Positions 1,132 to 64,000 of a stretch of 64,000 bases of DNA are shown here, piece by piece; within the stretch, counting starts at the first letter, position 1; the number at the start of each line of letters is the position of its first letter. This DNA comes from a candidate division CPR2 bacterium GW2011_GWC2_39_35. GTDB taxonomy: Bacteria > Patescibacteriota > CPR2. The position numbers and the translations under genes were made by a program. The notes below the pieces were generated by a model. It did no database searches, was not told the origin of the DNA, and saw only the letters and a list, made by a program, of their open reading frames with translations. The DNA is taken from assembly GCA_000995065.1 (NCBI GenBank), contig LBWX01000002.1, positions 223,708 to 287,707 on the forward strand, written 5' to 3'.

Positions 1132-2091
1132 ATGCAAAAGATTTTAAGAAAAGAAAAATTAACAGAATTTTTAGAATACTTGGAGGTCAGGTATGATGTT
1201 TATGCCTTAGCAAAAAGTGGGGGAGAGCATGAATATCATTACGAAAAAGTTACCGCCAGGGATTATTCATATACGATAGGAATTTCTGAGGTTACTCCCA
1301 AACATTTCTTTTTGCCGGCAAGCCACGAGATGTTTAAGGCTCTGGGAACTTCTAGTAAAAAGAAAGTTATTTTTGGTGTCCATTACTTTGATATCGAAGC
1401 TATTTCTCTTTTAGATAAAGCTTTTAAATTTCCTATTACCGATCAGGAATTTTTTACTTTAAAAGAGAAGGTAATCATAATTGGGATGGATTACACCCCG
1501 GCGCCAAAAGAGGGTCACGATCTTTATTTGCAAATTTTAGAAGATGAATATGCGGTTACTGCCGGTTCCGGTGTAGGAGCGCGCCTCGCAAAACTTAAAT
1601 TTTTTGAGGAAGCTAAGGCTCATCCTAAAAAAGATTCCTGTCAAACTGAGGATGTGGTTAAAGATTCAAGATTGGCGGCGGCCATCAGGGAAAGCAAGGA
1701 CAGCAAAATTTGGGATGATTTATCCAAAAGATGTTTTGGCTGCGGCACCTGCAGTTACGTTTGCCCTGTTTGCTACTGCTTTGACATAAAAGATACCTTT
1801 GATCTTAAAGGAAACGCCAAAAGAGAAAGGTGTTGGGATTCCTGCATGCTTTCTAATTTTGCTACTATTGCTGGAGGATATGATTTTCGGCCGGAGCTAA
1901 GGAATCGGATTTATAACTGGTATTATCATAAATTTGTTAGAATGCCGAAAGAGCTAAAAAGGGTAGGCTGCGTTGGTTGTTCCAGATGCGTTAGCTTCTG
2001 TCCGGCTCGGATTAATATCCGCGAAGTCTTAAGTGATGTCTTAAAGGAATACGAGAAGAAACATGCCAAAAAATTTATATTATCCAAATAA
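1132..2091 (+). CDS. hydB: Hydrogenase-associated Fe-S subunit (sulfhydrogenase beta / AsrA-like)
   Basis: Two CxxCxxCxxxCP ferredoxin motifs (CFGCGTCSYVCP and CVGCSRCVSFCP). It is the first gene of a four-gene hydrogenase operon. Confidence 0.65.
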   Translation: MQKILRKEKLTEFLEYLEVRYDVYALAKSGGEHEYHYEKVTARDYSYTIGISEVTPKHFFLPASHEMFKALGTSSKKKVIFGVHYFDIEAISLLDKAFKFPITDQEFFTLKEKVIIIGMDYTPAPKEGHDLYLQILEDEYAVTAGSGVGARLAKLKFFEEAKAHPKKDSCQTEDVVKDSRLAAAIRESKDSKIWDDLSKRCFGCGTCSYVCPVCYCFDIKDTFDLKGNAKRERCWDSCMLSNFATIAGGYDFRPELRNRIYNWYYHKFVRMPKELKRVGCVGCSRCVSFCPARINIREVLSDVLKEYEKKHAKKFILSK

Positions 2092-2887
2092 AGCTAAAAT
2101 AATTTTTATTGAAGAGCAAGCGCCAGGAATGAGACTTTTCGGGATTAGATTTTCGGATAAAAATATCCATCAAAGTTTTAATTTTGTACCGGGTCAATTT
2201 GTTTTCTTGTCGCTCTTGGGTCACGGTGAATTTCCGGTTTCCATTAGCTCTCATCCAAATGAAAAAGATTGTTTAGAGCTTCTTATTAGAAATGTAGGGG
2301 CGGTTACGGGTGCCCTTTTTGGCTTAAATGTTGGGGCAGAAGTTGGTATAAGAGGCCCTTTTGGCAATGGCTTTGATATCCGGAAACTTTATGGAAAAGA
2401 TTTGGTAGTAGTTGCCGGAGGATGCGGTGTCGCTCCTCTTAGATCCTTGATGAAAGGGGTCCTTATTGAAAGAAAGAAGTTTAATAAGATATACTTCTTG
2501 TATGGGGCTAGAACTCCTAAGGACATGCTGTTTAAAAAAGACATTCAGGCTTGGCGAAAGCAATGCGGCGTTTATCTTACTGTAGATGAGCCGGATTCTA
2601 GTTGGAAAGAAAATGTCGGCCTTATTACTACTCTTTTTGGGAGTATTAGGGTAGACAAAGCGGCAGTGGCTGTTACTTGCGGCTCTCCGGCCATGTTTAA
2701 GTTTGTTCTTGTCGAGCTTAAGGCCTTGGGACTTAAAGACAGTAATATCTATTTGTCGTTAGAACGGAGAATGAAATGCGGCATCGGAAAATGTCAGCAT
2801 TGCACTTGCGGCGATAAATATGTATGTTTGGATGGACCGGTGTTTGCATTTAGTGAGATAAAAGAAAACCCAGAGGTGTTATTATGA
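2063..2887 (+). CDS. hydG: FAD/NAD(P)-binding oxidoreductase subunit with C-terminal 2Fe-2S (sulfhydrogenase gamma / PyrK-like)
   Basis: PyrK/AsrB-like fold signatures (GGCGVAPL) and a C-terminal Cys cluster CGIGKCQHCTCG. It overlaps the upstream and downstream genes. Confidence 0.65.
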   Translation: MPKNLYYPNKAKIIFIEEQAPGMRLFGIRFSDKNIHQSFNFVPGQFVFLSLLGHGEFPVSISSHPNEKDCLELLIRNVGAVTGALFGLNVGAEVGIRGPFGNGFDIRKLYGKDLVVVAGGCGVAPLRSLMKGVLIERKKFNKIYFLYGARTPKDMLFKKDIQAWRKQCGVYLTVDEPDSSWKENVGLITTLFGSIRVDKAAVAVTCGSPAMFKFVLVELKALGLKDSNIYLSLERRMKCGIGKCQHCTCGDKYVCLDGPVFAFSEIKENPEVLL

Positions 2888-3627
2888 AACATAAAGTAAA
2901 AATTGCAATTTTTGACTTAACAGACTGCGAAGGCTGCGAGCTTCAGTTCTTAGCTTTCGTCGAGAAAGTTTTGGAAATGGACGATCAATTAGAAATTACA
3001 AACTGGCGTCTGGCAAAACAGAAGAATGTCGAAGGCCCTTTTGACGTCGCTTTTATCGAAGGAAGCCCCTTAACCGAAGAAGACATCGAACTAATAAAAG
3101 AGATTAAGAAGCATTCCAAAGCGGTTGTGGCACTTGGAAATTGTGCTTCATTGGCCGGAATTCCGGGTCTCATTAATGGTGAGGAAAGAGAACGGCTTGC
3201 TAAAAAGATCTATGGCCCAAATTACAAACTAAGAGTTAGGGAAGTCCGCCCCCTCAGCCATTATATTGATGTCGATTATGAACTTCGAGGTTGTCCAGTT
3301 ACCGAGAAAGAACTGGAAGAGCTAGTATCAAGCCTAATTTCCGGCAAAAAAGTCGTGCCAAAGACTTATCCGGTATGCTTAGAATGTAAGGCAAATGGTA
3401 ATCCTTGCTTATTTTTAGAAAATAAAGCCTGTCTGGGAGCTGTTACGAAAGGTGGTTGTGGGGCACTTTGTCCGTCTCATGGTCACCGTTGCTATGGCTG
3501 TTTGGGTCCGGTCAGAGAAAACAATACTGATGCCATAACAAACCGTTTATCCGAGACGGTGGGCAAGGACGAAGCAATACGCCAGCTCGAGATTTTTGTA
3601 AATAACCCGATGATGGAGGAAAAATGA
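2884..3627 (+). CDS. hydD: NiFe hydrogenase small (delta) subunit
   Basis: N-terminal DCEGCE proximal-cluster cysteines and a C-terminal Cys-rich Fe-S region (CPSHGHRCYGC). It is translationally coupled (ATGA overlap) to the large subunit. Confidence 0.75.
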   Translation: MKHKVKIAIFDLTDCEGCELQFLAFVEKVLEMDDQLEITNWRLAKQKNVEGPFDVAFIEGSPLTEEDIELIKEIKKHSKAVVALGNCASLAGIPGLINGEERERLAKKIYGPNYKLRVREVRPLSHYIDVDYELRGCPVTEKELEELVSSLISGKKVVPKTYPVCLECKANGNPCLFLENKACLGAVTKGGCGALCPSHGHRCYGCLGPVRENNTDAITNRLSETVGKDEAIRQLEIFVNNPMMEEK

Positions 3628-4862
3628 AAAGTTTAATGAATAACTATATTACTAAGATCGAAGGACACGGAAATTTAAAAGTAAATTTTAATAACGAAAA
3701 AGTGGAGCTTCATGTAGAAGAAGGCGAACGGCTCTTTGAGGGACTTATTCTGGGGAGATATTTTGAGGATGGACCGATAATAACAGCTAGGATCTGCGGT
3801 GTTTGCCCCACGGCTCATACTTTTGCTTCGATAACAGCTTTAGAAAATGCTTTGGATATTAAGGTGTCGGATCACATCGCCACTTTAAGAAAAGTCATGC
3901 TTTCTTTGCAGATTTTTCAAAGTCATGTGCTGCACTTATTCTTTTTGGCGATCCCCGATTATTTAGGAATTGACAATTCCTTAGAGCTTGCTACTGCTAA
4001 TCCGGAAGTTTTTAACACGGTTTTATCCTTAAAGAGGTTGGCCGATGAAGGCATCGAACTTATTGGCGGGCGGCCGATTCATCCGATTACTGCCGTAGTT
4101 GGCGGCTTTACGAAGTTACCGGAATATAAGGACTTAGATGAGTATAAAAAGAAAATCGAAAAGAGCTTGATTCATGCCATAGAGGCTGCCAAAATTTTTA
4201 AGACGGTCAAATATCCGGAAGTAGAAAACGAAAAAGAGTATCTGGCACTCTTGGGATCAAACTATCCGCTTACAGGAGAGGTCGTTGTTTCCTCTCTTGG
4301 TAAGGGTTTTGAGGTCAAAGATTATCAAAAAGTTGTTACCGAAACTGTTAAAAGTTATTCGACTGCCAAGTTTTCTACCAAGGATGGCAAAGGCTTTATG
4401 GTCGGTGCAATTTCCAGGCTTAATCTAAAATATCCGCTTTTAAATAAAGAGGCTTTTGGTTTGGCTGAGGGTGAATTCCCAACCCATAATCCATTTAAGA
4501 ACAACTTAGCCCAGGCTATAGAATTGGTCCATTATATGGAAGAGATCATCGAGCTCATTGGCTCTCTAAAGGACGCTGATTTAAGTCATGCCCGGGATCA
4601 ATTTGAGGTAAAAGCTGGAGTCGGGGCTGGCTGTATCGAAGCACCAAGAGGGCTCCTATTTCATTATTATGAGCTTAATTCAAAAGGCATTATCACTAAG
4701 TGCGACATCATAACTCCAACTGCTCTAAACCTAACGAGTATCGAGGATGATGCGGAAGCGGTTCTTAAAACTAACGGCGGTATCTCGCAAGCGAAAAGGG
4801 AGCATGAGCTAGAGATGCTAGTTAGAGCCTACGATCCATGCATTACGTGCTCGGTACACTAA
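3624..4862 (+). CDS. hydA: NiFe hydrogenase large (alpha) subunit, group 3
   Basis: N-terminal L1 motif RICGVCPTAH and C-terminal L2 motif DPCITCSVH. The protein ends exactly at the His of L2, with no C-terminal extension. Confidence 0.85.
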   Translation: MKSLMNNYITKIEGHGNLKVNFNNEKVELHVEEGERLFEGLILGRYFEDGPIITARICGVCPTAHTFASITALENALDIKVSDHIATLRKVMLSLQIFQSHVLHLFFLAIPDYLGIDNSLELATANPEVFNTVLSLKRLADEGIELIGGRPIHPITAVVGGFTKLPEYKDLDEYKKKIEKSLIHAIEAAKIFKTVKYPEVENEKEYLALLGSNYPLTGEVVVSSLGKGFEVKDYQKVVTETVKSYSTAKFSTKDGKGFMVGAISRLNLKYPLLNKEAFGLAEGEFPTHNPFKNNLAQAIELVHYMEEIIELIGSLKDADLSHARDQFEVKAGVGAGCIEAPRGLLFHYYELNSKGIITKCDIITPTALNLTSIEDDAEAVLKTNGGISQAKREHELEMLVRAYDPCITCSVH

Positions 4863-5153: not shown

Positions 5154-5229
5154 TATTTTTGTTCCTTGTTATCTAAGGTTTATTATAAACTTTATTTTCA
5201 AAGTCGGCTAGAGAGATGTTTTGTTAGAA

Positions 5230-41183: not shown

Positions 41184-41996
41184 TTACTCAACCTGAAATG
41201 AACGCAGAAAGATTTCTGCTTGACTGATGGTTTGCCACAGTTTTTTTCTCTTCTCCCTAAGTTTCCGCCTCTCGTCTAAACTAAGATGTGTTAGGGAAAG
41301 CCCTGAAACATTGCGGTTAGGTACGATATTATCCAGAGAACCCACATGCGCTATTTTATCGTAATAATCATTGATATAGGCTATCTGCCTGTCAGTTAAC
41401 AGGTGACCGTACACTTTGAGAAGAATTTTTATTCTTTCAAATTCCATGGTAAGTTGCATCCAGCTCTCACTTGGACAAGGCTCGACATCTTCAGGCTTAA
41501 GATCGTTTGCAAGCTTCTCTGCTGTATCCCTTGTAAACCAACCTCCCCATGGCTGATCCCTTGAAGCACGGCGCGCAAGTTCAGCAATCTCATCTTCATA
41601 GATTTCGTCTTCGCGCTGGTATTCGTGTTCTTCGATTGCATCGGCAATGAAATAGAATAGAATCCAGTGCACAGGAAAATCTTTGGAAAGAAATAGGAGA
41701 AGATCTTCTGCACTTTCTGCGAGCTTAGTTGCAAGCTTGTTGCTAAAAACAAACTCATCAAGCAGTTCCCGGGTGTCTTGGTGTCGTATTGTTTTTATCG
41801 TGTCTTCCATTAACCGTTCGTATGGATTTCTCAGGCCAGTAACCGCCGTGGCAAAGAGCATTGCCTTAAAGATATCGTACAAATCGAGCGCATCTTGTGC
41901 CAAGAGTATTGTCTTCCCCTTTCTGTTCTCGTCAAGTTCAACAGTGACTTTGCCAATTACTTCTTCTAATGTCTGACACAAGGGATCATCAATCAT
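41184..41996 (-). CDS. Hypothetical protein (first gene of the accessory island)
   Basis: 270 aa, acidic, no recognised domain. Confidence 0.4.
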   Translation of the reverse strand: MIDDPLCQTLEEVIGKVTVELDENRKGKTILLAQDALDLYDIFKAMLFATAVTGLRNPYERLMEDTIKTIRHQDTRELLDEFVFSNKLATKLAESAEDLLLFLSKDFPVHWILFYFIADAIEEHEYQREDEIYEDEIAELARRASRDQPWGGWFTRDTAEKLANDLKPEDVEPCPSESWMQLTMEFERIKILLKVYGHLLTDRQIAYINDYYDKIAHVGSLDNIVPNRNVSGLSLTHLSLDERRKLREKRKKLWQTISQAEIFLRSFQVE

Positions 41997-42171
41997 AATC
42001 TTATTCCTTCCACTCGGAGGTTTATATTCAATTGCTAAGATTGCATGGCAATTTGCCGATGTTACAGGATATCACAAAAAGACGTTTTTGTACATAATTT
42101 CGAAGGAATTTCGAGTCGCTCCTGAATTTAACATCAAAACTGCAGTGGAAAAGAAGATAATTGCTTTAATC

Positions 42172-42251
42172 TAGTCATCCCTGTGGAAGCGGGGATTCGG
42201 GAAGAGCGTATCTAGAAAAGGTCTGGATTCCAGACTCCGCGGGAATGACAA
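42172..42251 (-). mobile_element. MITE-like element, diverged copy 1 (terminal inverted repeats GTCATCCCTGTG ... CGCGGGAATGACAA)
   Basis: Its ends align with the reverse complement of the copy at 50276-50359. It lies in the divergent promoter region of the island. Confidence 0.5.
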
Positions 42252-42491
42252 GCATTTAATTTGTAAATAATCCAAAACGCTAGAATTCCGAACATCCTCC
42301 AACAAGCTACATTCGAATTACCAATCCTTAGTATCAATAATGTACTCACGAATTAATAAAATAAGAATAAGCTTAAAAATCACTGTACTTTTTTGAGCTG
42401 TGCTTTTGATTTTCCGCCTAACATTGAAGGAACATTGAAGGAAAAATCTTTGACCAATAGTTAGATAAATGATATAATTTCAGACTAATAG

Positions 42492-45224
42492 TTGCGGTAC
42501 AGTTACTTGAAAACTGAATATTTATCAGTGAACATAGGAGATTTAGGATTAGGAAAAGGAGTGGATTTCGTGAAAGAGATAGTAGTAGAGCAAGGCGCAG
42601 GGGATGAAGAAAAAAGAATGATTGAAAACATGCGAGGGATAGCAGTGGATGATGCGGAATTCGTAATAATGGCAGAAGAAAAGAAAGACACAGTGAATAA
42701 AAAACTATGGCTTGAAAACATGACGCGGATAACCGAAGATGATCTTCAATTCGTTTCGGGCACGGCTTGGAGGTTCTATAAACAGAATTCCATACTATTG
42801 GGAATGCTGGGTATAGACTTTTGTAGCCTGGAAGATGCGGCTTTCGGCGGTATGGAGGATGCGTGTAAAAGATACGATGAGACAAGAGGAAAAAGCTTGC
42901 GAGGATTCTATTACATTCGGGTTGTCGGAAGCATGTGGGATTTCATAAGAAGCCGCTCGCTTATCTCCAGATCAGCTCTAAAGGCCATAAAGGAAGTTCA
43001 GAGCTATGTTGCAAGCCAAAGCCAAGATGGCCGTGTAGTAACAAGCTCGGAGATATATGAAATATTTTCCGAGGCTCACGTAATGGCAATGGCGCAATCT
43101 AATAACAGGGTCGCTTTTCCGCTGTCGCTGGATCAAATTGTGTTGTATGGCGGCCAAGGGGGCAGGGTACAGGCTGAGACTTCTTATCATAACCTCATTT
43201 CTGATGATAGCGATACTGAAGACGATGCGACTTACCAGCAGGCTCTTGAAGAGCTTCGTGATGTCATCAAAGAGGTTAGTCTTAACTATGGTTCGTCGCC
43301 CGAGGTGAAGGAAAGAGCATTGTCGTTAATGGAAAAACGGTATAATTTCGATAGCGACTCAAAAGCTCCTTCGTTTAGGGAGCTAGGAGATGAATTCGGT
43401 TGTACCGAAAGTCGAGTAAGCCAAATTCACAGTAAGCTAATCAGCAAGCTGAAGGATGAAGAACCTGCATTGGATATTCTTAGGGACCTGGCGAGCAGGA
43501 TTAGCCGTCAAGGCATCTCTTCTCGTCAATCTGTTCGGATAGTATCCTTTGGTCAGCCGGACCTGACTCCTCCTCCGCACATTCGCCAGAAAAGAAGAAT
43601 ATCTAAACGTGAAGATGTCTACGACAAAAATGTAGCATCAGAGGAAACGTTGTTGGAGGCGGAGGATATTGAAGTCGAAGGAGTATCCGATGACAGCAGC
43701 ACCCCTCAGGATACTAAAGCTGTTTTTTTGTTTGATTCAGACATCAGGGCCTATAAGATTATGCTCGATTTATTGAAGAAGAGCAAAGATGGATTGGTGC
43801 GACTCAAAGAAAAGCATAAGGTTACTGATGAAGTACTTCTAAAGCTTAGGCGCAAGGGCTTTGCGATAATGCAAAGTGACGGCTCTGTGCTGGTGCAGAA
43901 GAAGAAATACATCAGGATGCCAGATCCTGAGTCAGAGTCCAGGCAGGATAAAGCTGTTTTTTCTTCGAGGAAAGCTAGGATTAAAGATAGCGAACCAGGG
44001 AAACGAGGGGCGCGAAAACTCACTGATTCTGATTGGGAGGAGCGCCACAAAGAGACGCTCGCGAAACTTTATGAGCGTTTCCCAGACGGATGTGTCGTTG
44101 GCGGACTGGGGACGATCTTTATCGAACTGAATATGAGAGGAGGTTTCAATTATCTTAAGAGATTCAAAGAAGACTCCGGTTTTCTGGAGGAGACTAGTCG
44201 CCTAAGGCATAGTTTTTCTGAGAAGGCAGAAGCTTATCTGGAATCTATAGGCAAGATCCTAATCAAGACGGAACCGGAGGATGTGCCCGAAGAGTCCAAA
44301 AACATAACTGCCACATCCGGAAAACCCGGAAGACAAAAGCTCTCTTCTGACCATTGGAGTGCTCGTCATAAAGAGACGCTAAAAAAACTCTACGACCAAT
44401 TCCCCGATGGATGGGTCATTGGTGGACTGAGTACGGTCTTTAAGGATCTGGGCATTGTCGGAGGACAGAGTTATCTTCAGAGGTTCAGAGACGTATCTGG
44501 TTTCCTTCTAAAGGTCAATGGATGGAAACATTGTTTCTCTGATGAGGCAATTGCCTATCTGGAATCGATTGGGCTAACCATTATCGAGCCAGAAGAGGAC
44601 GACTCGCTGGAAACCGATGATATCTCGACTTCAGGATCAAGAAGAGGCGGAAGGCGGAAGCTTACTGATGCAGACTGGGATGTTCGTTTGAGAGTCACGG
44701 TAGAGAAGCTTCATGAACGATTCCCAGATGGGTGGATAGTCGGTTCCCTGACTGAGATCTTTAGAGACTTAGGCATCAAGGGAGGATACAACTATCTTCA
44801 CAGGTTCAGAGAGTCCTTCTACATTCGCAAGGTTAAACATAGACAACATCGCCTTACCGATATTGCCAGCAGGTATCTCGAATCGATTGGAAAGAATATA
44901 ATCGAATCGGATCCAGGGAAGTACGATCAGGAACGATTCTTGCGGTCTTCCCAAAAGGCGGTCGAGATTTTAACGCCCATGGTTAAAACTATGAAGCAAG
45001 ATGACTGGCTTGCTGAGTTCTTGAGTAATGTTGTGCAAGAGAACGGTGGCTTTTGTTACAAAACGGATCTTGAAACTACTTGCAAAGACAAATATGGTTT
45101 TGTAAAAAAAGTCATGCTTAAGACTGCACGAAATGACGGGTACGTCAGCGAGGAAAGTGGCGGTAGCGGCGAGATAACCGAAAAAGGACAGGAGTTCTTA
45201 AGACAGAAGGGCTATATTAACTAA
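42492..45224 (+). CDS. Sigma-70-family-like protein (regions 2 and 4) fused to a ~590-aa C-terminal extension with three ~95-aa tandem repeats
   Basis: Region 2-like YDETRGKSLRGFYYIRVVGSMWDFIRSRS and region 4-like FRELGDEFGCTESRVSQIHSKLISKLK. Three repeats of LTD.DWE.RHKETL.KLYE.FPDGWV.GGL.T.F..LGI.GG..YL.RF...SGFL......S..A.AYLESIG. The gene looks locally GC-richer. Confidence 0.55.
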   Translation: MRYSYLKTEYLSVNIGDLGLGKGVDFVKEIVVEQGAGDEEKRMIENMRGIAVDDAEFVIMAEEKKDTVNKKLWLENMTRITEDDLQFVSGTAWRFYKQNSILLGMLGIDFCSLEDAAFGGMEDACKRYDETRGKSLRGFYYIRVVGSMWDFIRSRSLISRSALKAIKEVQSYVASQSQDGRVVTSSEIYEIFSEAHVMAMAQSNNRVAFPLSLDQIVLYGGQGGRVQAETSYHNLISDDSDTEDDATYQQALEELRDVIKEVSLNYGSSPEVKERALSLMEKRYNFDSDSKAPSFRELGDEFGCTESRVSQIHSKLISKLKDEEPALDILRDLASRISRQGISSRQSVRIVSFGQPDLTPPPHIRQKRRISKREDVYDKNVASEETLLEAEDIEVEGVSDDSSTPQDTKAVFLFDSDIRAYKIMLDLLKKSKDGLVRLKEKHKVTDEVLLKLRRKGFAIMQSDGSVLVQKKKYIRMPDPESESRQDKAVFSSRKARIKDSEPGKRGARKLTDSDWEERHKETLAKLYERFPDGCVVGGLGTIFIELNMRGGFNYLKRFKEDSGFLEETSRLRHSFSEKAEAYLESIGKILIKTEPEDVPEESKNITATSGKPGRQKLSSDHWSARHKETLKKLYDQFPDGWVIGGLSTVFKDLGIVGGQSYLQRFRDVSGFLLKVNGWKHCFSDEAIAYLESIGLTIIEPEEDDSLETDDISTSGSRRGGRRKLTDADWDVRLRVTVEKLHERFPDGWIVGSLTEIFRDLGIKGGYNYLHRFRESFYIRKVKHRQHRLTDIASRYLESIGKNIIESDPGKYDQERFLRSSQKAVEILTPMVKTMKQDDWLAEFLSNVVQENGGFCYKTDLETTCKDKYGFVKKVMLKTARNDGYVSEESGGSGEITEKGQEFLRQKGYIN

Positions 45225-45298: not shown

Positions 45299-45790
45299 AT
45301 GCTTCATTTTAAGAATCGGTCCCGAATTATTTATGGGTTTTACTTCTCAATTACTCATGAAGACGATGAAATGAGAGGCCTTATTAGCAAAACCGACCAC
45401 AAGACACTGGCTCTTTGGAGTATTGATTGTGCGGAAAGAGTTATGCACTATTTTGAAACAGAATACACCGATGATCCTCGGCCTCGCGAAGCTATCAACA
45501 CTCTTCAGGAATGGATTAAAACGAGTAAATTCAGTATGAGGATTATCCGTCAAGCATCGTTAGCCTCACACGCCGCAGCCAAAGAGATTGGCAATGATAG
45601 TCCGGCTGCATCCGCAGCACATGCAGCTGGACAAGCCGTTGCGACTGCTCATGTATCAACGCATTCTTATGGACCTGCCGTATATGCTCAACAAGCTGTT
45701 TTTAAAGCTACAAACTCGTTAGACGCTGTTCAAAAAGAGAGGGATTGGCAATTTCAGCATTTGCTAGACCTTGGGGCCAAGAAGTACTAA
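45299..45790 (+). CDS. Putative immunity-protein-like all-alpha protein (LALW..DCAE..PRPRE family, Ala/His-rich)
   Basis: HKTLALWSIDCAERVMHYFE, DDPRPREAINTLQEWI, and the AASAAHAAGQAVATAHVSTH repeat typical of small orphan 'immunity protein' ORFs. The likely start is the internal MRGLIS. Confidence 0.5.
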   Translation: MLHFKNRSRIIYGFYFSITHEDDEMRGLISKTDHKTLALWSIDCAERVMHYFETEYTDDPRPREAINTLQEWIKTSKFSMRIIRQASLASHAAAKEIGNDSPAASAAHAAGQAVATAHVSTHSYGPAVYAQQAVFKATNSLDAVQKERDWQFQHLLDLGAKKY

Positions 45791-50043: not shown

Positions 50044-50120
50044 TGGCGACCCGGACCAGACTCGAACTGGCGACCTCCTGCGTGACAGGCAGGCGTTCTA
50101 ACCAACTGAACTACCGGGCC
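50044..50120 (-). tRNA. tRNA-Asp(GTC), CCA encoded
   Basis: Reverse complement GGCCCGG..GCTT.., anticodon arm CCTGC-CTGTCAC-GCAGG, T-arm CGCCA-GTTCGAG-TCTGG, 3' GGTCGCCA. Confidence 0.85.
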
Positions 50121-62136: not shown

Positions 62137-63708
62137 ATGGAAAACAAAACAAATACAATTGAGAAAGTTGACGTTACCCTGAAAGACATCGTAAAGGAAT
62201 CTGAGGGTAAGGTAAAAAAACCGTCTAGGATAAAGCCGCATCATAAAAAAATTGCCGCTTGGATGGTTATTTTAATTGTGGTCTTTTCGCTTCTTATTAT
62301 TGTGGCCGGCGCTATTTATGCTCATCAATCAATTTATGAGAATAAGGTTTATCCGGGAGTTGTTGTTTGGGGTGAGCCGGTTGGCGGTAAAACCGTAAAT
62401 GAAGTCCAGCAGCTAATAACAGACAAGGTTAAAAATTATAAGGTTACTTTAGCTAGCCCAGATCAAACTTATGAGCCAACGGCCGACGAACTTGGACTTG
62501 TGTTTAACATCGAAACTATGGCTCTAAGCGCTTATTCTAAGGGAAGGACGGGATCGTTCACAAATAATATTGTTACCAGAACGAGGCTTTTAGGCATGAA
62601 CATCGAATGGAATCCGGCAAAAAACTTCTTTCGGGCTAAAGAACTTGAGATTTCGCCGAGCTTTACTTTTTATGAAACGAAACTGGATAATTATATTGCA
62701 AAGATTTCCGAGAACCTGACTATTAAGGAAAAAGATTCGGAAGTTAAGGTAAATGGGGGAAGCATAGAGATTGTCCCGGCCGTATACGGACGCCAGGTAG
62801 AGACAGAAGATTTGAGCAAGGATTTAAAGGGTGCTGTTAAGAGACTTCAGTCTAAAATGATCGAGATAAAAACAATATCGGTTAAACCTAAAATTGTTGA
62901 TACGGCTGCTGATAAGGTAGTAAGTGAGGCTCAGGAAATAACTAACCGCCCGGTTGCTCTTACTTATCTTGCTGAGACTTATAAGCCCGACAAAGAAACC
63001 ATTACTTCTTGGGTCGTGTTTGTAAAAGAAGAAAGCTCCGAGAACTATAAATTAGTAGTTGATCCCGCTAAGATGAAAAATTATTTCTCATTTTTGTCAT
63101 CTAAGATTTATGCGGCTCCGGTACATAAGAAAGTAAAAGTCGAAAACGGGGGTGCCCAGACTGTAACTCAGGAAGGGAAGGACGGTATCGCATTAGACGA
63201 AGGCTTGCTTGGCAGACAAATCGCTGATGCATTACCAAAAAGTGAGGCCATCAATATAGCTATTCCGACTTATGCCATAAAATATAAAACTGAATACGAA
63301 AACGTGTTGGTGGCAGATTGGGCTAAATATATTGAGATTAATATTTCTACTCAGACAATGACGGCTTATGAGCAGGGCGGCAAAATTGTCGGCCAGTGGA
63401 AAGTAACCACCGGAGCAAGCTATACCCCCACACCGGTTGGAACATGGCTCATTCATGGAAAAACGGCGGTTACAAGGATGACGGGGGGAACGCCCGGAAT
63501 TGATTATTATGACCTACCGAATGTTCATTGGGTGAGTTGGTTTAAGGGCGGCGGGTACTCTATCCACGAAGCCTATTGGCGAACCAGTTTTGGCGGCATG
63601 GATTATACCTGGAATGGGTCTCACGGGTGCGTTAATTCGCCAATTGATGTGGCCAAATTTATTTACGACTGGGCGCCGGTTGGAACTCCGGTGGTAGTAC
63701 ACTATTAA
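62137..63708 (+). CDS. L,D-transpeptidase family protein (YkuD catalytic domain), membrane-anchored
   Basis: N-terminal transmembrane segment and the C-terminal catalytic SHGCVNSP motif with the upstream His. Confidence 0.8.
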   Translation: MENKTNTIEKVDVTLKDIVKESEGKVKKPSRIKPHHKKIAAWMVILIVVFSLLIIVAGAIYAHQSIYENKVYPGVVVWGEPVGGKTVNEVQQLITDKVKNYKVTLASPDQTYEPTADELGLVFNIETMALSAYSKGRTGSFTNNIVTRTRLLGMNIEWNPAKNFFRAKELEISPSFTFYETKLDNYIAKISENLTIKEKDSEVKVNGGSIEIVPAVYGRQVETEDLSKDLKGAVKRLQSKMIEIKTISVKPKIVDTAADKVVSEAQEITNRPVALTYLAETYKPDKETITSWVVFVKEESSENYKLVVDPAKMKNYFSFLSSKIYAAPVHKKVKVENGGAQTVTQEGKDGIALDEGLLGRQIADALPKSEAINIAIPTYAIKYKTEYENVLVADWAKYIEINISTQTMTAYEQGGKIVGQWKVTTGASYTPTPVGTWLIHGKTAVTRMTGGTPGIDYYDLPNVHWVSWFKGGGYSIHEAYWRTSFGGMDYTWNGSHGCVNSPIDVAKFIYDWAPVGTPVVVHY

Positions 63709-63805
63709 ATAGGAAATAGGAAATAGGAAATAGGAAATAGGAAATAGGAAATAGGAAATAGGAAATAGGAAATAGGAAATAGGAAATAGGAAATAGGAAA
63801 TAGGA
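63708..63805. repeat. Tandem heptanucleotide repeat (AATAGGA) x14
   Basis: A perfect 98-nt microsatellite starting at the stop codon of the L,D-transpeptidase gene, followed by the inverted word TCCTAATT. Confidence 0.95.
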
Positions 63806-64000
63806 ATCTCATTCCTAATTATCCTTAAAGCCCTGATCTTTGAAACAAAAAAAGACCTTTTGGTCTGTCATTTATATTCTTAAAATGAATGACAAGAGAG
63901 AAAGAATTTTTTGCGACCTCGCCGGGCAAGGGTAGCAGCAGAGCAAATGGATTTTCGATACATGATCGTTTTTCTCATTTGAATAACTGCTATCCTTTAT

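Follow-up and report, generated by a model that had tools for sequence, protein, structure and literature searches.

A divergent sigma-70-family protein with a repeat-built, predicted winged-helix extension in a candidate division CPR2 bacterium

Sigma factors are normally compact, and large fused domains are rare outside the extracytoplasmic function (ECF) group. In the established geometry of the holoenzyme, region 4 of the sigma factor touches the -35 element, and the phage T4 activator MotA achieves 'sigma appropriation' through a winged-helix domain placed at this region. The winged-helix domains of PafBC work directly at domain 4 of SigA, a mode termed 'sigma adaptation' (PMC8635444). 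ECF sigma factors with C-terminal extensions (ECF41, ECF42, ECF56, ECF238, ECF294 and others) combine a sigma core with a fused domain and have no adjacent anti-sigma gene (PMC7826278, PMC3426412); their extensions act on the sigma core, and regulatory extensions are common in this group (PMC7826278). Here we describe a gene of candidate division CPR2 bacterium GW2011_GWC2_39_35, a member of the candidate phyla radiation (CPR), located in a 64,000-nt stretch of contig LBWX01000002.1 that is called the window below. Its product joins a sigma module to a 560-aa extension built around tandem repeats with a predicted winged-helix fold. Fused C-terminal domains are known in ECF sigma factors; an orphan, repeat-built winged-helix extension on a sigma-70-family protein is new, and no account of a sigma factor bearing winged helices in tandem emerged from literature searches. 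Amino acid positions are numbered on the 910-aa form that starts at TTG 42492, and feature coordinates are collected in Table 1.

Sequence comparison identifies residues about 75 to 325 as a complete, very divergent sigma-70-family module that is most like group 3. The NCBIfam model FliA_WhiG (TIGR02479) matches aa 112-322 with E = 2.8e-16, or E = 1.5e-17 when the module is excised, and there are hits to the structures of WhiG (6pfv, E = 2.6e-8) and FliA (6pmi, E = 2.7e-6), the solved WhiG and FliA structures ranging to 4e-5. Run exhaustively against 1.84 billion representatives, phmmer yields 133 sigma factors outside the query's own cluster, all of which align solely to aa ~75-350 and most of which are 230-280 aa long; the best 17 of the 133 are strong FliA/WhiG members, with E-values down to 7.6e-84. 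Collinearity extends from regions 2.1-2.4 through a region-3-like segment to regions 4.1-4.2; the region 4.2 motif, TESRVSQIH, is canonical, and six of the seven positions invariant in the 17 genuine relatives are retained. The region 2 and region 4 signatures picked out in a preliminary description of this DNA (RGFYYIRVVGSMWDFIRSRS, aa 137-156; ELGDEFGCTESRVSQIHSKLISKLK, aa 297-321) are both present, and the module is a genuine one.

FliA/WhiG (sigma-28, group 3) is the best family for this module, which keeps the invariant Arg, Gly and Asp of region 2 and the TESRVSQIH helix-turn-helix of region 4.2. However, the significant models are full-length sigma ones only, and every one of them scores far under its own curated cutoff: 59.9-64.1 bits against 189.6 for TIGR02479, which leaves the threshold of the FliA/WhiG subfamily unreached, and 31.3-35.9 bits against 42.9 for TIGR02937 (E = 1.4e-7). 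The Pfam search proposed in the preliminary description came near to overturning the assignment, since Sigma70_r4, at 21.5 bits, misses its gathering score of 24.1, Sigma70_r2, at 13.6 bits, misses one of 24, and Sigma70_r3 has no match in the protein. The module is identical at 25 and similar at 32 of 48 family-consensus positions (those conserved in at least 70% of the relatives), where genuine members keep 74-96% of the same positions in leave-one-out comparisons, and region 2 has atypical substitutions (D112S, G117A, F136L, A140Y, D156S, R163L). Because the score lies so far under the cutoff and only 25 of the 48 positions agree, we do not file the module as a FliA/WhiG member on sequence grounds.

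The protein also differs from FliA/WhiG in architecture and setting. At 884-910 aa it is far from the compact build of the family (about 240-280 aa), and both its size and its architecture are unusual, as claimed at the outset: the 133 closest sigma relatives have a median length of 252 aa and a maximum of 688 aa. The host is a CPR bacterium with no flagellar or developmental context among the genes scanned, and neither flagellar nor anti-sigma-like genes occur among the 23 window ORFs (open reading frames) scanned against Pfam. In a scan of the window for canonical sigma-28 promoters, most of the matches listed fall within annotated ORFs and the counts are inflated by overlapping A-runs. Five of the 133 relatives are at least 400 aa long and none has the repeat described here. 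The relative closest in design is a metagenomic 373-aa sigma factor, P0078, with regions 2 and 4 and a C-terminal MarR/HTH_24-like winged helix; it is the only one of the 133 with a recognizable fusion of this type, but its winged helix is single, detectable with Pfam (E about 5e-5), unrepeated and without similarity to our repeat profile. Among these distant metagenomic relatives, extensions of 170-260 aa are present at the C-terminus of P0012, P0063 and P0078, with a recognizable MarR-like winged helix in P0078 only, while P0044 (688 aa) is a tandem of two complete FliA-like modules.

The extension contains three tandem units, each composed of a positionally conserved Gly/Arg/Lys-rich arm (GKRGARK, GKPGRQK and RRGGRRK in units 1 to 3), a core and an acidic linker. 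The first residues of the cores are aa 510, 617 and 724, and their lengths are 78, 78 and 77 aa. With a linker of 29 aa added to a 78-aa core, the period is 107 aa instead of the ~95 aa first proposed. The three repeats are genuine and lie well outside chance expectation, with Smith-Waterman scores between cores of 196-231 against about 24 +/- 4.5 for shuffled sequences (z 35-50). Cores are pairwise 47-55% identical (37-43 residues). Invariant residues are found in an RFPDG loop, in GG before helix H3, in Y-L-x-R-F within H3 and, above all, in the YLESIG of H4. The putative recognition helices are alike in the three units (GFNYLKRFKEDS, GQSYLQRFRDVS and GYNYLHRFRESF), and the net charges of the cores are -4, 0 and +3.

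The gene shows no nucleotide difference across the seven public loci compared, its neighbourhood is the same in all of them, and the members of its cluster are likewise identical within the gene. There is therefore no strain variation for selection tests, and the divergence between the repeats, treated as internal paralogues, was used instead. The repeats are 55-61% identical at the nucleotide level and synonymous divergence (dS) between them is saturated, at 1.1 or more, while non-synonymous divergence (dN) is 0.35-0.42 in the cores against 0.73-0.95 in the linkers. Between cores, the differences amount to 0.53-0.64 at third codon positions but only to 0.24-0.34 at first and second ones. From the saturated dS, the lower dN of the cores and the excess at third positions, it follows at the sequence level that the duplications are old and that the cores, more constrained than the linkers, are held by purifying selection.

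Structure prediction gives the repeat unit the H1-b1-H2-H3-b2-b3 topology of a winged helix, a fold recognizable by this route only. Its structural neighbours include RuvB domain III, MukF, the cullin WHB domain and the Rpa2 winged helix. It is distinguished from generic winged helices (MarR, DtxR/MntR, TubR, MukF, PadR and RuvB domain III) by an extra C-terminal helix that carries the invariant YLESIG. The domain had been called unrecognized, which remains true of its sequence, no Pfam or PDB sequence family being matched, and no longer of its predicted fold. Units 1 and 2 have no Pfam match at E <= 5 and unit 3 gives noise only; the repeat profile finds nothing relevant among PDB sequences. 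Homology to RuvB_C, a structural top match, was considered and rejected: Smith-Waterman comparison with E. coli RuvB_C gives z 0.1-1.4 and hhalign a probability of 0.6%.

Searches for relatives of the extension return the protein itself. The whole protein has only itself as a match in 5.8 billion clusters, and so have aa 350-910 in the exhaustive phmmer search; the three-repeat profile has no match at E <= 10. Nothing related to the extension is found in GTDB genomes, JGI metagenomes or IMG/VR, nor by tblastn in phages and plasmids; it falls into no sequence family of Pfam, PHROG, PADLOC or PDB, and a viral fold library yields nothing specific. By these sequence comparisons the winged-helix domain family is new.

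The segments that flank the repeats are less well defined. The linker at aa 326-410 shows no secondary structure in a low-confidence model (predicted local distance difference test, pLDDT, 24-35). In the basic segment that follows, a helix-strand-helix-strand-strand order is weakly predicted (pLDDT 51-61), and the segment may represent a winged helix in degenerate form; its resemblance to the repeat profile is marginal (p about 0.016 against shuffles, where controls gave 0.09-0.6). The C-terminal tail, for which a winged-helix-like fold had been guessed, resembles a repeat in register (GGFCY, YGFVKKV and TEKGQEFLRQKG), a likeness that is not statistically secure: it scores 1.8-2.9 bits against the repeat (p about 0.03 against shuffles, with the same controls) and E = 0.08 with Pfam HTH_45, its model is of low confidence, and the guess is not confirmed. 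As a possible fourth and fifth copy of the repeat, the basic segment and the tail are marginal candidates. A single-sequence AlphaFold2 model of the whole extension (pLDDT 42) is too poor for use.

We tentatively favor, as possible though well short of probable, the hypothesis of an alternative sigma factor with an upstream-DNA-binding array of its own on the same polypeptide. The N-terminal module, with regions 2, 3 and 4, would bind core RNA polymerase and read -10/-35-type elements as group-3 sigma factors do. Because region 4 contacts the -35 element, the C-terminal extension would emerge where upstream activators act: with region 4 on the -35, the flexible linker of ~85 residues would place it upstream of this element, where activators and the C-terminal domains of the alpha subunits normally work. 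There the basic segment and the three winged-helix units, each with its Gly/Arg/Lys-rich arm, would bind iterated sites, adding affinity and specificity for the promoter without a separate activator. PafBC offers a likeness, since there too a winged-helix DNA reader at or near region 4 adds or replaces upstream recognition. The difference is that PafBC and MotA are separate proteins docking on a housekeeping sigma factor, whereas the domains studied here are fused in cis, in at least three copies, as putative DNA readers.

Several observations point in this direction. Similarity is significant across regions 2-4, six of the seven invariant positions persist and TESRVSQIH is kept. Conserved basic arms and similar H3 helices are consistent with DNA binding, the segment that precedes the repeats has a pI of 10.1, and selection has preserved the repeats since their ancient duplication. 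By analogy, the sigma-winged-helix fusion of P0078 may be taken as a partial precedent. Other observations weigh against the hypothesis. No DNA target is identified, and the sole iterated motif nearby is a two-copy 11-mer. Taken as a whole, the repeat cores lack a basic character. Invariance is strongest in the RFPDG loop and the YLESIG of helix 4 rather than in the putative recognition helix, a hint of a surface for packing or for protein contacts, and winged helices also serve protein-protein contacts, as the matches to MukF, RuvB, cullin and Rpa2 recall. Agreement at 25 of 48 consensus positions, with all curated cutoffs missed, makes binding to RNA polymerase less than assured. Finally, the protein is a singleton of one uncultured species, and without homologs neither co-variation nor conserved context backs any function. 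We regard as rather doubtful the further proposal that this is an undescribed architecture, in which regions 2-4 and three to five sequence-specific winged-helix readers would form a self-activating factor that recognizes composite promoters marked by iterated sites upstream. Such a factor would have arisen de novo in a CPR bacterium of reduced genome, and its winged-helix family is without detectable relatives among 15 billion proteins.

The same charge and conservation data can be read differently, with the extension as a built-in regulatory or partner-binding module that folds back onto the sigma core, or recruits a partner, to switch the sigma factor on and off. This is a serious possibility, if a somewhat doubtful one. 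Cores that can be described as neutral to acidic, conservation that peaks in helix 4 and the RFPDG loop and not in helix 3, and the use of the same fold for protein contacts by MukF, RuvB domain III, the cullin WHB domain and the Rpa2 winged helix all agree with it, and no anti-sigma-like gene is recognizable next to the gene, as in the ECF cases. The parallel with ECF proteins is nonetheless incomplete. They belong to group 4, with regions 2 and 4 only, while here group-3 models match best, a region-3-like segment aligns, the fused part is a set of tandem winged helices and the extension has no Pfam match. In passages of PMC7826278 the extensions are given as SnoaL-like, tetratricopeptide repeat (TPR), Cys-rich, DUF1835 or transmembrane, and the term 'DNA-binding' is absent from the main text of that paper. 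Moreover, a 560-aa array of five segments with basic arms and a segment of pI 10 is large for a simple autoinhibitor.

It is unlikely, though to be reckoned with, that the protein is a recruited or decayed sigma fold, now a lineage-specific DNA-binding or regulatory protein that no longer binds core RNA polymerase and possibly came with a mobile or conflict element. The 60-64 bits against 189.6 for TIGR02479, the sub-threshold Pfam scores for r2 and r4, the 52% identity at family-consensus positions and the atypical region 2 substitutions would fit such a history, as would a singleton confined to one species, with orphan, Imm5_like and HEPN/ApeA-type genes for neighbours. The gene also has the highest GC content at third codon positions (GC3) in the window, 0.46 against 0.31-0.43 in every other gene longer than 350 nt that was measured, and its product weakly resembles phage sigma families (phrog_351, E = 1.4e-7). 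But six of the seven invariant positions and the entire region 4.2 motif are intact, and the match is collinear from region 2 through region 4. There is no PADLOC match, no phage or plasmid relative, no integrase among the neighbours scanned and no element boundary, and the gene context is fixed on all contigs.

Tandem winged helices can also hold RNA: in SelB, four of them at the C-terminus grip the hairpin of the selenocysteine insertion sequence (SECIS). By analogy the array could tether the sigma factor, or the holoenzyme, to a structured transcript. This is very improbable; the argument for it is architectural, a core factor with a C-terminal tandem winged-helix array, and an imperfect hairpin does lie upstream (42160-42260, z -2.96), but before the predicted promoter. 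An artefact, be it mis-assembly, a frameshift fusion, a recent expansion by slippage or a pseudogene in decay, has only the singleton status in its favor and is effectively refuted, because the same protein recurs on at least 14 contigs, which different assemblers produced from different samples, with zero differences in the seven loci compared, in an ORF that is uninterrupted and of uniform GC3, whose repeats diverged in a coding manner under purifying selection with an excess of third-position changes.

Table 1. Position of the gene, of its segments and of neighbouring features in the window (aa numbering from TTG 42492).
Feature	Position	Strand	Remarks
Full ORF	42492..45224	+	910 aa from TTG; probable start GTG 42570 (884 aa)
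Divergent sigma-70-family module, aa ~75-325	42714..43466	+	by TIGR02479, PDB matches, alignment and conservation count
Region 2, aa ~112-163	42825-42980	+	within sigma module
Region-3-like segment, aa ~164-225	42981-43166	+	within sigma module
Region 4, aa ~270-325	43299-43466	+	within sigma module
Linker, ~85 aa, aa 326-410	43467..43721	+	no predicted structure; mixed-charge, Ser/Arg/Glu-rich
Basic segment, aa 411-475	43722..43916	+	net +9, pI 10.1
Repeat unit 1, aa 500-606	43989..44309	+	basic arm, predicted winged-helix core 44019-44252, acidic linker
Repeat unit 2, aa 607-713	44310..44630	+	core 44340-44573
Repeat unit 3, aa 714-819	44631..44948	+	core 44661-44891
C-terminal tail, aa 836-910, 75 aa	44997..45221	+	resembles repeat in register
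Tandem 11-nt direct repeat, AACATTGAAGG x2, perfect	42420..42441	+	8 nt upstream of promoter-like -35
Sigma-70-type promoter-like site	42450..42478	+	TTGACC, 17-nt spacer, TG-extended TATAAT; 11/12 matches, a consensus match only and not evidence of function
Imm5_like putative immunity protein gene	45299..45790	+	PF21805 E = 8.2e-40; 75 nt past the stop codon of the sigma-like gene
Divergent 270-aa orphan	41184..41996	-	short YlxM / sigma-region-4-like helix-turn-helix at aa 188-215, E about 3e-5 to 4e-5
HEPN/ApeA-type gene, 461 aa	48494-49879	-	C-terminal HEPN_Apea E = 8e-15; PADLOC Cas13-ApeA and PDC-S58, E = 1e-21 to 1e-23

The ORF, 2.7 kb long, is present exactly as the preliminary description gave it. 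Its true start is probably GTG 42570, since an AGGAG lies 8 nt upstream of it and the promoter-like site is too close to TTG 42492 for a leader to fit between them; the resulting 884 aa are the length called by JGI and in most NCBI records. The contigs that encode the protein come from several samples and assemblers and from one candidate division CPR2 species only. A cluster look-up assigns it to candidate division CPR2 bacteria of groundwater metagenome-assembled genomes, with the annotation hypothetical protein. LepA encoded in the window reaches 59% identity at most with GTDB species representatives, its best matches being metagenome-assembled genomes of Saccharibacteria/Patescibacteria. 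GC3 is even along the whole gene, and the compositional deviation is merely mild.

The perfect pair of AACATTGAAGG upstream of the promoter-like site is, from its sequence and position, a candidate operator or upstream site; elsewhere in the window this motif has one-mismatch copies only, all in coding regions and none intergenic. The element described as resembling a copy of a miniature inverted-repeat transposable element (MITE) is an imperfect palindrome, single-copy within this window. It lies at 42170-42250 (GTCATCCCTGTGGAAGCGGGGATTC ... GGATTCCAGACTCCGCGGGAATGAC; -34.6 kcal/mol, z -2.96), before the predicted promoter. The divergently oriented 270-aa orphan was considered as a conserved partner and rejected, as it has no homologs and no match with the sigma profile; a word-indexed search of 5.8 billion clusters returned nothing for it, even the protein itself being absent.

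Downstream, the immunity-like gene announced in the preliminary description is indeed there (Imm5_like) and may be co-transcribed with the sigma-like gene. It has no recognizable toxin partner, the tail of the preceding protein giving no toxin-domain match. The idea that this protein is a polymorphic toxin was dropped: Pfam detects no toxin or trafficking domain in the whole protein or its tail (E <= 1-5) and the N-terminus is a sigma module. Beyond Imm5_like follow two orphan ORFs, an alpha/beta hydrolase gene, the HEPN/ApeA-type gene and tRNA-Asp. The HEPN/ApeA-type gene encodes, by its domain matches, a candidate defence RNase; it adjoins tRNA-Asp (50044-50120), and its GC content, 0.32, is unusually low. 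A known anti-phage defence system, for example of the sigma-containing MzaA type, was rejected, PADLOC having no match for the sigma-like gene or its immediate neighbours. An accessory island, as had been asserted, is plausible but unproven: the same neighbourhood surrounds the gene on every contig, composition deviates little, the neighbouring genes scanned include no integrase, and neither element boundaries nor presence/absence polymorphism are seen.

Further observations concern the rest of the window. Periodic A-tract repeats (TCAAAAnTCAAAA..., period about 7-8 nt) of 35-90 nt form a family found in either orientation, for the most part between ORFs or directly behind them, and may be terminator-like, promoter-like or structural; they have starts at 5226, 16465, 18446, 19646, 21987, 26243, 26425, 26931, 28542, 28613, 29917, 29998 and 53038. 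An (AAATAGG)n heptanucleotide microsatellite of about 15 copies spans 63693-63811 and begins in the last bases of ORF 62137-63708. A gene resembling the NiFe-hydrogenase large subunit and a 4Fe-4S dicluster gene are clustered at 1132-4862, in a genome that otherwise looks reduced in the manner of CPR bacteria.

The weight of these results is limited by their origin in one uncultured species, by the lack of homologs for comparative tests and by functional steps that are all conjectural. In itself the extension illustrates clearly how a large orphan region can be built from repeats and kept by selection. If the array does read upstream DNA, promoter recognition and activation could be merged into a single subunit, a design that would be relevant to minimal-genome biology, CPR bacteria having few regulators, and to synthetic orthogonal transcription.

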